Origin: a virus
Lineage: Duplodnaviria; Heunggongvirae; Uroviricota; Caudoviricetes
Direction: 5' to 3' (one strand)
IMG/VR virus record: IMGVR_UViG_2630968933_000007
Span: 53,025-117,024 of that record
DNA: 64,000 nt
A program made the position numbers. Positions within the stretch are counted from its first letter, which is position 1. Each line of letters begins with the position of its first letter. Of this stretch, positions 27,001 to 30,000 are shown in pieces.

Positions 27001-30000
27001 CAACAGCCCGCAGGCAAAAGGGCGGGTAGAGCGCGCCAATCAGACACTACAGGACAGGCTGGTCAAAGAAATGCGGCTTCAGAATATCAGTGATATTGAA
27101 ACAGCAAATGCATGGTTGCCGACCTTTATTGAAGCCTATAACAACCGGTTCGCTACGTCGCCTCGTACTACTGATAATGCTCATCTTGATGTGCACCATT
27201 CTGAAGAGGAACTGGGTTATATCTTCAGCCTACAGGCGAAGCGCGTTCTGTCTAAAAATCTCACTTTCCAGTACAAAAGCAGTGCGTTTCAGGTACGCAG
27301 TGAGGGCCGGGGATATCGACTTAGGCATTCGGTTGTTACTGTATGCGAGAACTTTGACGGTGAAATTAACGTTCTGTATGACGGGAAAGCGCTGGGCTGG
27401 GAAAAGTATGTTGATGGCCCGGAGCCTATACCACTGGATGATGAAAAGAGTGTCCATGAACGAGTGGATAATGCCCGTATTGATTTACGCTCAAAATACT
27501 ATGTTAAACCTAAAGCTGACCATCCCTGGCTTACGCGCCGAACGCAAAGTCATCAGCAAGTTAAGCCCCCGAAGTTACCTAAAAAGAAGCCTGATCCCGA
27601 TAAAAAAGATTGAAACCAAGATCGATTCGGTTGAGTGCATATCCATTCATAGGGTAGATTCTTAAGTCGCGTTTCTGGTGTTCATTTTCGGGTGGTTTGT
27701 TACTTGTTTTACCGGGGATATGCCAGAAACGCGCTGAGTCAGTCTGGGCGGTGCGCGTAATGAGGCGTTATGGTAAATAGCCTATGCTAATGTCCGCTAA
27801 GAGCAAGAAGCGGAAGTTGGCAGTTTTGTGGACTGTCCCCACAAAAGTGACTACAGAAATAGTTGCAATTCATAATTGATCATGGGTTGTCAGTTAAACT
27901 CGTGGCGATTTAAATAGACTAATTGGGAGTGCGTCCATTACTTATATCTTGTAATGTTAACTATCAGAAATGATACAAAGATAATATGTCTTTAAAGAAA
28001 AGGCTGATGGCGAAAAGTGGCCCGATGAGGGCCACAATACGGCTGTCACTTAGACGTAAATATCAATGGTGCCAGCGGTATTTGTATCGTCTTTTTTCTC
28101 TTCTTTTTTATCAGGCTGAACTGTCGCGTCTTCATTCTTTTTCTCTGCCTGCTGCCTTAACAACTGCTCCAGTTGAGCCCAGAGGCTTTCAATTTGCTTC
28201 TGTACCAATGCAGCCATTTCTTTTTTCTGCTGTGTCGTCATCCCCTCTTCCGATGAGATTTTCCCAAGCTTTTCAGTCAGCACCTGAATTTGTCTTGTGA
28301 TTTTGGCTATTTCTGATGTTCCTTCCGGGGCGGAGTTGTTTGAAATAACGGTTGAGGTATTTCCCTGAATTGTGACAGACATAGATTTCTCCTTTTAAAA
28401 AAGCACTATCGGCATGCACAAAAAAATCTTTAATCGTATTTCTTGTGTCATTAATTGTTTGATGTTCAGATTGTTTTCCTCGCGGGCTGGCGCGCCTCAG
28501 AAAGTAAAGCTTGTTGACAGGGGTAAACGTTCGGCAATAATTTTCTGCCGCATGCGGGTGTTGCATAAAACGTGTTACGTTCCTTTATCGACAGGTCAGG
28601 TCACCGCTCACCCGCCGACGAGAAAGCAACACTGACATGCTAAAGCAAAAAATAGATGAATAAGTTGAGTTGTGCATATGTAGCCTGACCGTCACAAAGT
28701 ATATGGTGTCTGTACCAGTAAGATGATGGCCGGACTCTTTAAAAACGAGCTGACCTGCACAATACAGGATGGACTTAGCAATGGCTGCTCCTGGCACAAA
28801 GCGGACAGTGATCACCGTTCTTACGACTACTTTCTGACTTCCTTCGTGACTTGCCCTAAGCATGTTGTAGTGCGATACTTGTAATGACATTTGTAATTAC
28901 AAGAGGTGTAAGACATGGGTAGCATTAACCTGCGTATTGACGATGAACTTAAAGCGCGTTCTTACGCCGCGCTTGAAAAAATGGGTGTAACTCCTTCTGA
29001 AGCGCTTCGTCTCATGCTCGAGTATATCGCTGACAATGAACGCTTGCCGTTCAAACAGACACTCCTGAGTGATGAAGATGCTGAACTTGTGGAGATAGTG
29101 AAAGAACGGCTTCGTAATCCTAAGCCAGTACGTGTGACGCTGGATGAACTCTGATGGCGTATTTTCTGGATTTTGACGAGCGGGCACTAAAGGAATGGCG
29201 AAAGCTGGGCTCGACGGTACGTGAACAGTTGAAAAAGAAGCTGGTTGAAGTACTTGAGTCACCCCGGATTGAAGCAAACAAGCTCCGTGGTATGCCTGAT
29301 TGTTACAAGATTAAGCTCCGGTCTTCAGGCTATCGCCTTGTATACCAGGTTATAGACGAGAAAGTTGTCGTTTTCGTGATTTCTGTTGGGAAAAGAGAAC
29401 GCTCGGAAGTATATAGCGAGGCGGTCAAACGCATTCTCTGAACCAAAGCATGACATCTCTGTTTCGCACCGAAGGTGACACTTCTGCTTTGCGTTGACAG
29501 GAGAAGCAGGCTATGAAGCAGCAAAAGGCGATGTTAATCGCCCTGATCGTCATCTGTTTAACCGTCATAGTGACGGCACTGGTAACGAGGAAAGACCTCT
29601 GCGAGGTACGAATCCGAACCGGCCAGACGGAGGTCGCTGTCTTCACAGCTTACGAACCTGAGGAGTAAGAGACCCGGCGGGGGAGAAATCCCTCGCCACC
29701 TCTGATGTGGCAGGCATCCTCAACGCACCCGCACTTAACCCGCTTCGGCGGGTTTTTGTTTTTATTTTCAACGCGTTTGAAGTTCTGGACGGTGCCGGAA
29801 TAGAATCAAAAATACTTAAGTAGCGCGCAGGGATAAGAGGGATGGTCCCTTAAAGGGGAGAGCTAATTATCCGGAAGGATTCTGATGATGAACATCGAAG
29901 AACTGCGTAAAATTTTTTGTGAAGATGGCCTCTATGCTGTGTGCGTTGAAAATGGAAATCTTGTTAGTCATTACCGCATTATGTGTTTGCGAAAGAATGG

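Follow-up and report, generated by a model that had tools for sequence, protein, structure and literature searches.

Insertion sequences (IS) of the IS1202 family feature TGT ends, inverted repeats of 24-29 bp and a second internal binding site; they generate target-site duplications (TSDs) of several classes, including one of 15-17 bp, and occasionally carry passenger genes (PMC10132070, bioRxiv 2022.12.17.520857). The hokW-sokW locus of the Sakai prophage Sp5 is a working type I toxin-antitoxin (TA) system that aids phage release (PMC8621323). This report deals with a stretch of 64,000 nucleotides, referred to as the window throughout (positions 53,025 to 117,024 of the IMG/VR record IMGVR_UViG_2630968933_000007, assigned to the Caudoviricetes), in which flxA, ydfV, the type II TA genes relB and relE and the toxin gene hokD (relF) are arranged as in the Qin prophage of Escherichia coli K-12. 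Sequence identities, the ends of the intervening DNA, its duplications, an empty site and independent copies are documented below, and in view of these it is very probable that the Qin layout of flxA, ydfV and relBEF goes back to one transposition event, in which a transposon of the IS1202 family entered a hok gene.

The individual genes of this layout are well described. For K-12 proteins identical to those of the window, the toxicity of RelE, its neutralization by RelB and the Lon-dependent turnover of RelB are established, and the relO half-sites TTGTAATGACAT/TTGTAATTACAA constitute the operator that Overgaard et al. 2009 defined by scanning mutagenesis and hydroxyl-radical footprinting (PMC2812701). 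Northern blots revealed one full-length mRNA encompassing relB, relE and relF/hokD, which is lost upon deletion of the relBE promoter, PrelBE (PMC3598666). Expression of flxA in K-12 amounts to 280 in the wild type versus 2 in a fliA mutant, and the 28-mer of its promoter is identical to a FliA promoter listed with a chromatin immunoprecipitation sequencing peak in Table 2 of Fitzgerald et al. 2014 (PMC4183435); a 28-fold decrease in a fliA deletion was reported as well (PMC1935009). Window positions 27980-29900 match the reverse complement of the K-12 MG1655 Qin sequence (NC_000913.3) at 1921 of 1921 bases, hence the K-12 results hold for this part of the window, too. In this manner, binding of relO, co-transcription of relBEF and dependence of flxA on FliA are taken from the literature on identical sequence.

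A first-pass annotation of the window had described a near-consensus FliA promoter preceding flxA and, next to it, a relB-relE-hokD toxin module with a palindromic operator and a terminator, regarded as known Qin features and as cargo of the prophage, and had proposed alignment with K-12 as the check. That alignment bore out the identities of flxA, relB, relE and hokD; the promoter lies at 28432-28406 (minus strand), the operator at 28879-28902 and the terminator at 29737-29754, and all of these features have previously been published and studied experimentally. What has to be given up is the origin assigned to them: hokD belongs to a split phage hok/sok locus and is thus no original part of a common toxin module, and flxA and relBE are situated inside a flanked insert of 3274 bp instead of being cargo of the prophage itself. 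The promoter of flxA, relBE, relO, hokD and the terminator are textbook K-12 biology and offer nothing new, whereas an IS1202-family transposon with a TA module at its end, residing in the start codon of hok, seems to be the new part. In the portion of the literature that was searched, no account was found of the transposase, the inverted ends, the 15-bp duplication, flxA as a passenger or recurrent targeting of hok.

Evidence for the insertion is provided by an empty site. Phage mEp460 possesses an uninterrupted hok/sok locus at the same genome position, upstream of rem/Q, which is near-identical to window positions 26028-26225 joined to 29515-29920, with 2 mismatches over the hok open reading frame (ORF), its 3' untranslated region (UTR) and the start of rem. 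In the window, an insert of 3274 bp (26226-29499) interrupts the locus at the start codon of hok, and the 15-mer GGAGAAGCAGGCTAT, which extends from the hok Shine-Dalgarno (SD) sequence to the 'AT' of the ATG and is present once in mEp460, occurs twice, flanking the insert on either side as a perfect direct repeat. On the left, a full-length Rfam match to sok (RF01794, 26055-26226, 104.1 bits at a gathering score of 59) is followed by no hok ORF and stops just ahead of the transposase region. On the right, hokD encodes a small membrane toxin of the Hok/Gef type and is followed by a 3' fold-back (fbi) element and a terminator in a region that was aligned with hokB; sok and the hok leader with tac, sokT and the mok start are missing directly upstream of it, no Rfam sok match with E <=1 exists between relE and hokD, and an ATG at 29450 in this interval runs into TGA after 15 codons. 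The features that delimit the insert and its target are as follows.

26055-26225, plus strand: sok gene and 5' leader of the hok mRNA, left half of the split locus (Rfam RF01794)
26211-26225, plus strand: left copy of the TSD, GGAGAAGCAGGCTAT, from the sequence and the empty-site comparison with mEp460
26226-26253, plus strand: left inverted repeat (IRL), TGTTAACACCAAGCTGTAATGTCCCCTT, with an internal repeat of its inner part at 26257-26275
26226-27808, plus strand: conserved left module of 1583 bp (1610 bp in copies free of a 27-bp deletion)
26300-27613, plus strand: IS1202-family (ISEsa1-like) DDE transposase ORF, 437 aa (NCBIfam transpos_ISNCY_2, 452 bits, cut-off 250)
28787-29499, plus strand: conserved right module comprising PrelBE, relO, relB, relE and the right inverted repeat, 99% identical to plasmid pMY504-1
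29472-29499, minus strand: right inverted repeat (IRR), reverse complement TGTCAACGCAAAGCAGAAGTGTCACCTT, 21/28 match to IRL
29500-29514, plus strand: right copy of the TSD, GGAGAAGCAGGCTAT, from the sequence and the empty-site comparison with mEp460
29513-29668, plus strand: hokD (relF), 100% identical to K-12 b1562 (Pfam HOK_GEF, 82.9 bits, cut-off 22)
29720-29764, plus strand: native 3' end of the hok mRNA, with the fbi-like CTCAACGCACCC at 29721-29732 and an intrinsic terminator (stem 29737-29754, then a T-run)

Judged from these alignments, hokD is the target gene, that is the prophage's own hok, and not cargo of the transposon. The two halves in the window rebuild the mEp460 locus almost exactly and place it among the lambdoid hok/sok loci, such as those of mEp460, HannyBb and hokW-sokW, the latter of which is likened to it by membership in the hok-sok family and not by alignment; in contrast to the intact loci, hokD of the window is devoid of an adjacent sok, the mok frame and a promoter of its own, owing to the 3274-bp interruption. 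In the phage collection, the whole block is found in Escherichia phage PhiR42_1 only, while about 77 other phages, among them mEp460, HannyBb and Stx2a/PPompW phages, match just from window position 29499 onward (hok SD, hokD, 3' UTR and rem) at 97-99% identity. An alternative origin of the two halves, by which recombination between paralogous loci joined hokD to the sok remnant at 26055, was dismissed, given that the single 15-bp duplication and the empty site of mEp460 fit one insertion better. Similarly, the 71 nt between relE and hokD had been considered as a truncated and diverged hok leader with a dead mok. This was rejected because the 58 nt after relE recur at targets other than hok and form the IRR; they therefore represent the right end of the element instead of a hok leader.

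The extent of the duplication also bears on the conventional view, according to which flxA, relBE and hokD would be ordinary prophage morons, with relB-relE-hokD as a three-gene toxin operon native to Qin and the IS as an unrelated, separate insertion. The K-12 annotation and the literature indeed list flxA among the Qin genes and describe relBEF as a single operon, and about 22% of the complete genomes of E. coli contain the block at ~99-100% conservation. Nevertheless, the 15-bp duplication encloses all of 26226-29499 and not the 1.6-kb IS part, mEp460 features an intact hok locus free of everything in between, and relBE plus IRR recurs at many unrelated sites, where it is accompanied by the same IRL and transposase and by different cargo, which renders this view extremely improbable.

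The insert itself has the anatomy of an IS1202-family element. IRL and IRR agree at 21 of 28 positions, both begin with TGT, and their pairing is the top non-self match among 127,944 window positions (runner-up 18/28); in addition, TGTC repeats are located at +20 and about +45 of either end. The transposase contains Pfam helix-turn-helix (HTH) and rve_3 domains, and its intact copies are named 'IS1202-like element ISEsa1 family transposase' by PGAP. The DDE transposase of the ISNCY/IS1202 type, inverted repeats of ~24-29 bp that start with TGT and feature an internal copy of the inner repeat, and independent insertions whose duplications have a characteristic length (15 bp in the window, 14-17 bp elsewhere) are thus all present. 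Compared with described members of the IS1202 (ISNCY) family, i.e. ISEsa1 and transporter IS such as ISKpn21, the element shares a DDE transposase with N-terminal HTHs, 5'-TGT ends, imperfect inverted repeats of ~28 bp, the inner-repeat internal copy, the 15-17-bp duplication class and the occasional presence of passengers. It differs in that the unit spans 3.3-9 kb versus 1.3-2 kb, with a fixed TA pair at the right end and a variable middle.

A copy on a plasmid allowed this structure to be tested by prediction. IncHI2-like plasmids carry a relBE that is 98.8-99% identical to that of the window and followed by a different hok ORF, and the likeness to the window ends at the hok start codon. 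It was predicted beforehand that the plasmid would possess a sok leader and a 15-mer of its own abutting the same IRL, and on pMY504-1 this held: the Rfam sok match (80.5 bits) ends at ...GGAGAAGAAGGCCAT|TGTTAACACC..., i.e. at IRL, and GGAGAAGAAGGCCAT occurs exactly twice on the plasmid, the second time directly after the right end and before the plasmid hok. The pMY504-1 element comprises 6093 bp with the transposase, an ISEsa2 insertion, cytochrome b561, a CDF transporter and relBE; it has only the left module (26226-27808, 90% identity, with complete divergence beyond) and the right module (28787-29499, 99%) in common with the window. RelB and RelE are identical, and IRL, transposase, IRR and the position of insertion in hok are shared, whereas another hok allele was hit and cytochrome b561, CDF and ISEsa2 replace flxA and ydfV.

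This plasmid copy also bears on the published view that relBE is of plasmid origin and integrated into hokD, whereby an ancestral hokD/mok ORF was truncated (Ramisetty & Santhosh 2016, to the extent that it is cited in PMC6379469). On this view, relBE would have arrived by homologous or illegitimate recombination as a cassette of promoter plus ORFs devoid of a transposase, and the IS and flxA would be separate acquisitions. The presence of nearly the same relBE (98.8-99%) beside a hok on IncHI2-like plasmids is in line with this, as is a short homology, GGAGAAG.AGGC.ATGAA, at the right junction. On the other hand, the plasmid copy possesses the same IRL, transposase and IRR and its own 15-bp duplication, differing duplications of 14-17 bp at >=10 sites are a signature of transposition and not of recombination, and targets other than hok offer no homology for a crossover. 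Recombination of a cassette is therefore rated as very unlikely, if slightly less so than the conventional view.

The recurrence of the element was assessed by a transposase-based scan with one genome per species, which returned 79 loci. Throughout the Enterobacterales, the same IRL and IRR enclose elements of 2.6-9.1 kb. More than 15 loci of other genera contain the IRL, which in most copies is free of mismatches over 30 nt, and at least 10 further target sequences each feature a direct repeat of their own of 14-17 bp, for instance GGAGAAGAAGCCATG, GATATGCTGACAAA, (A)GATGTTAGCCATG and (A)CCAGGCGGTACAGTAT, as well as TACCAAAACAAGCCCC, GCTGTGTCTTGCCTT, CATGACCGCGCAACCG(T) and (A)CATTAAGCTGCAAAT(T). 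In more than 12 elements, relBE (93-100% amino acid identity) adjoins IRR next to differing middle cargo, which includes LysR-linked transporters and arsenic-resistance genes, and IRR abuts the duplicated target at sites other than hok as well. Nine different hok leaders adjoin IRL and share one orientation throughout, and besides the window and pMY504-1 the Rfam sok match stops exactly at IRL in five loci of other genera.

Further copies were encountered in this census. In two elements from Scandinavium (L026, L040), relBE is replaced by a TacA1-family antitoxin and a GNAT fragment beside IRR, and a TA pair at this end therefore seems to be a family trait. Hahella sp. SMD15-11 harbors eleven copies of a simple, more distantly related IS (L028-L039, L053) of 1448-1449 bp with clean inverted repeats, 62% transposase identity and duplications of 15-17 bp, and the sequence just 5' of each ends with CAA or ACA. 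An element of 2575 bp (L081) was considered as a minimal unit of transposase plus relBE and discarded, as its transposase is decayed and it contains an unrelated ORF of 333 aa.

We lean slightly towards a wider proposal, namely that relBE(F) of K-12 is the right end of a transposon family of the IS1202/ISEsa1 type, that insertion into hok uncoupled this gene from Sok/Mok and brought it under the control of PrelBE and that ISEsa1 corresponds to the left module. The members of this family would share four traits: a type II TA pair, either relBE or TacA/GNAT, fixed beside the right inverted repeat; variable passengers such as flxA, metal or arsenic resistance genes and LysR-linked transporters; target duplications of 15-16 bp; and preferred insertion 15-16 nt downstream of GGCA(A), in the ribosome-binding region of hok genes.

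Several points weigh against a single insertion of a mobile, hok-targeting element and against its consequences for hokD. ISEsa1 is entered in ISfinder with 1609 bp and no detectable TSD or target (PMC10132070, bioRxiv 2022.12.17.520857), and this length fits the left module alone (1610 bp). In contrast to this entry, TSDs of 14-17 bp are found here and the translation initiation region of hok was struck repeatedly, and the near-equal lengths suggest that ISEsa1 may have been delimited too short. No convincing inverted repeat was found where the left module ends on its right (27808), while sequences resembling IS ends are present internally near 28523, 28780 and 28794 and suggest a more complicated, stepwise assembly. 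Furthermore, the transposase of the window lacks 9 aa in its N-terminal HTH relative to the copies of 446 aa, due to a 27-bp deletion near 26363, so that the copy in the window may be immobile; the mobility of the element as such is deduced from comparative structure. Selection or the GGCA(A) motif, rather than true site specificity, could explain why hok is hit preferentially. Finally, in the minimum-free-energy fold predicted for 29420-29765, the SD/AUG of hokD pairs with the 3' part of hok and the tip of IRR with the fbi-like element; translation of HokD from the relBEF mRNA is putative.

The internal end-like sequences at about 28523, 28780 and 28794 likewise speak for a composite that arose in steps, in which the 1.6-kb IS entered hok first and flxA and a small relBE unit with related ends followed later; the occurrence of the flxA cassette alone in an Enterobacter island and the agreement of the left module with the ISfinder length of ISEsa1 point in the same direction. 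If the IS alone had been inserted, the duplication would bracket about 26226-27808, yet the second 15-mer is not there. Moreover, elements with varied cargo are all duplicated at the outer IRL and IRR, hence the outer pair is what transposes, and a stepwise gain of cargo prior to the jump into hok is compatible with transposition of the complete element. Assembly within hok is accordingly regarded as most improbable.

The genes and sites enclosed by the ends, apart from the transposase, are the following.

28050-28382, minus strand: flxA, 100% identical to K-12 b1566 (Pfam FlxA, 53.8 bits)
28432-28406, minus strand: sigma-28 (FliA) promoter of flxA, TAAAGATT-N11-GCCGATAG (motif scan)
28585-28890, minus strand: ydfV ORF, 101 aa (ORF call)
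28851-28856 and 28874-28879, plus strand: relBE promoter, putative -35 TTGCCC and -10 GATACT, assigned from the sequence
28879-28902, plus strand: relO operator with half-sites TTGTAATGACAT and TTGTAATTACAA
28915-29154, plus strand: relB, ribbon-helix-helix (RHH) antitoxin and autorepressor (Pfam RelB, 112 bits; NCBIfam PRK11235, 133 bits)
29154-29441, plus strand: relE, ribosome-dependent mRNA interferase toxin (Pfam ParE_toxin, 51 bits; TIGR02385, 54.7 bits)

The relBE genes display the organization of a type II TA system, in which the gene of the RHH antitoxin RelB precedes and overlaps that of a toxin with the RelE/ParE fold; the two reading frames share ATGA at position 29154. The Pfam and NCBIfam assignments to FlxA, RelB, RelE/ParE and Hok/Gef all exceed their cut-offs by a wide margin. 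Upstream, relO features four [A/T]TGT[A/C]A hexads in two abutting half-sites of 12 bp that overlap the promoter, and its palindrome was recovered independently in a search for inverted repeats. Among 5426 complete E. coli genomes, relBE is present in 1247, flxA in 1201 and the 2-kb block in 1147, and the block reaches >=99% identity in ~22% of these genomes.

By contrast with the conserved right module, flxA is located in the variable cargo segment (27809-28786). Its promoter, TAAAGATT-N11-GCCGATAG, comprises a -35 element, a spacer of 11 nt and a -10 element just upstream of the gene, as is typical for sigma-28 class-3 promoters; it deviates from the consensus TAAAGTTT-N11-GCCGATAA at 2 positions, ends 23 nt upstream of the flxA ATG and is the sole match with <=2 mismatches in 64 kb (0.03 in shuffles). 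A homologue of flxA with 85% amino acid identity was observed in Enterobacter sp. HG048 (locus L088, 4951-5339), adjoining icd in an island that also contains an integrase and an IS3 fragment. The cassette of ~500 bp in that island retains the -35 core and the -10 element (TAAAGATA-N11-GCCGATAG) with a different spacer, hence the promoter moves together with flxA.

The sequence of events that best fits these data can be outlined as a model. A 3274-bp transposon of the IS1202 family (ISEsa1-like), with the order IRL, transposase, flxA with its sigma-28 promoter, ydfV, PrelBE-relO-relB-relE and IRR, would have jumped into hok at its SD sequence and start codon, with a 15-bp duplication of the target. 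This would have left sok and the leader of hok (tac, sokT and mok start) 3.3 kb upstream of the hok ORF and deprived hokD of its RNA antitoxin, of coupling to mok and of its own promoter. As hokW-sokW, an intact locus of the same hok-sok family, promotes phage release, the insertion probably cost the phage a working module. As no terminator precedes hok, transcription from PrelBE would exit via IRR into hok, include its ORF as the third cistron and end at the native hok terminator, yielding the relB-relE-relF(hokD) transcript. PrelBE in turn is autorepressed by RelB2-RelE at relO and derepressed upon degradation of RelB or excess of RelE, and the output of HokD would now fall under relBE regulation. 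The cognate sok persists 3.3 kb upstream in the window, its K-12 counterpart having been deleted. As a passenger, flxA is oriented leftward, opposite to relBE, and transcribed by the FliA-RNA polymerase of the host like a class-3-type gene.

The state of Qin in K-12 can be understood against this background. In the window, the transposase ORF is preceded on its left by the replication and immunity genes of a lambdoid prophage that resembles Qin but is more complete, as in ATCC 8739, G1/2 and PhiR42_1. Window positions 22628-27428, which hold genes of the replication region, a methyltransferase, the sok leader, IRL and most of the transposase, are missing from K-12 Qin, where the deletion joins the ydfX/dicC side to ydfW; 'ydfW' itself represents the last 49 codons of the transposase (window 27464-27613). 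K-12 Qin is thus the same as the window base for base over 27980-29900, including the sigma-28 promoter, relO, the operon structure and the terminator, and differs in that it is devoid of IRL and the sok/hok leader and retains no more than these 49 codons of the transposase. The deletion would have occurred later than the insertion and left the right two-thirds of the element, and without 22628-27428 the transposon nature of the block is invisible from K-12 alone. The deposited 48.7-kb genome of Escherichia phage PhiR42_1 (ECOR13) contains the transposon-bearing region with 100% identity over 28000-29800; since this phage carries the insertion, Qin-type prophages that bear it are not all cryptic.

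An insertion of this kind would account for a type I toxin gene devoid of sok and mok as the last gene of the most thoroughly studied type II TA operon, for the spread of relBE among plasmids, phages and chromosomes at about 99% identity, for the presence of flxA, a gene of the FliA regulon without a motility role, in a prophage, and for 'ydfW' as a transposase tail and 'ydfV' as an ORF across a module junction. The ISEsa1 subgroup of IS1202 would gain a duplication length and a candidate target, and the reading of relBEF deletion strains is affected as well. Type II TA genes reportedly occur as passenger modules in Tn3-family transposons, a description attributed to Lima-Mendez and colleagues in 2020. 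In that family, a conserved type II TA system lies near the transposon end and presumably stabilizes the element or its carrier, similar to relBE here; the transposase families are unrelated, and Tn3 elements are replicative, with TSDs of 5 bp and a resolvase, in contrast to a cut-and-paste or copy DDE IS with TSDs of 15 bp. The relBE genes may provide the transposon or its carrier with an addiction module. The first-pass annotation had suggested that the host-regulon and TA cargo may stabilize the prophage; stabilization of the transposon would be the more direct reading. The TA system would most directly serve the transposon, and the arrival of relBE broke the hok/sok module of the phage, a consideration that extends to arguments about prophage-stabilizing TA systems.

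Some minor features of the element and its target complete the description. No family match was obtained for ydfV in Pfam or NCBIfam; the ORF runs across the boundary at 28787, where the variable cargo meets the conserved relBE module. Only its first ~35 codons are retained in plasmid copies, and a chance or chimeric origin of this ORF is probable. End-like sequences bracket the beginning of the relBE module (28753-28822), one on the minus strand ending at 28780 (18/28 to IRL) and one on the plus strand at 28794-28822, a configuration that hints at assembly from abutting related elements. Antisense to ydfV and facing relB, a strong sigma-70-like site, TTGACA-16-AATAAT (11/12), is located on the plus strand at 28500-28541; its TTGACA falls into an IS-end-like sequence (reverse complement TGTCAACAAGCTTTACTTTC), and this end-like sequence is also the upstream border of the flxA cassette in common with the Enterobacter island L088. 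A sub-threshold Rfam match to isrK on the 3' UTR of hokD (29677-29758, 25 bits at a gathering score of 50) was dismissed as an identity, as it spans just two hairpins and the terminator. At 27948-27972, a 25-bp unit, TCTTGTAATGTTAACTATCAGAAAT, which includes a TTGTAAT motif resembling a relO hexad, is present in one copy in the window and in K-12 and as a tandem duplicate in ATCC 8739 and many others.

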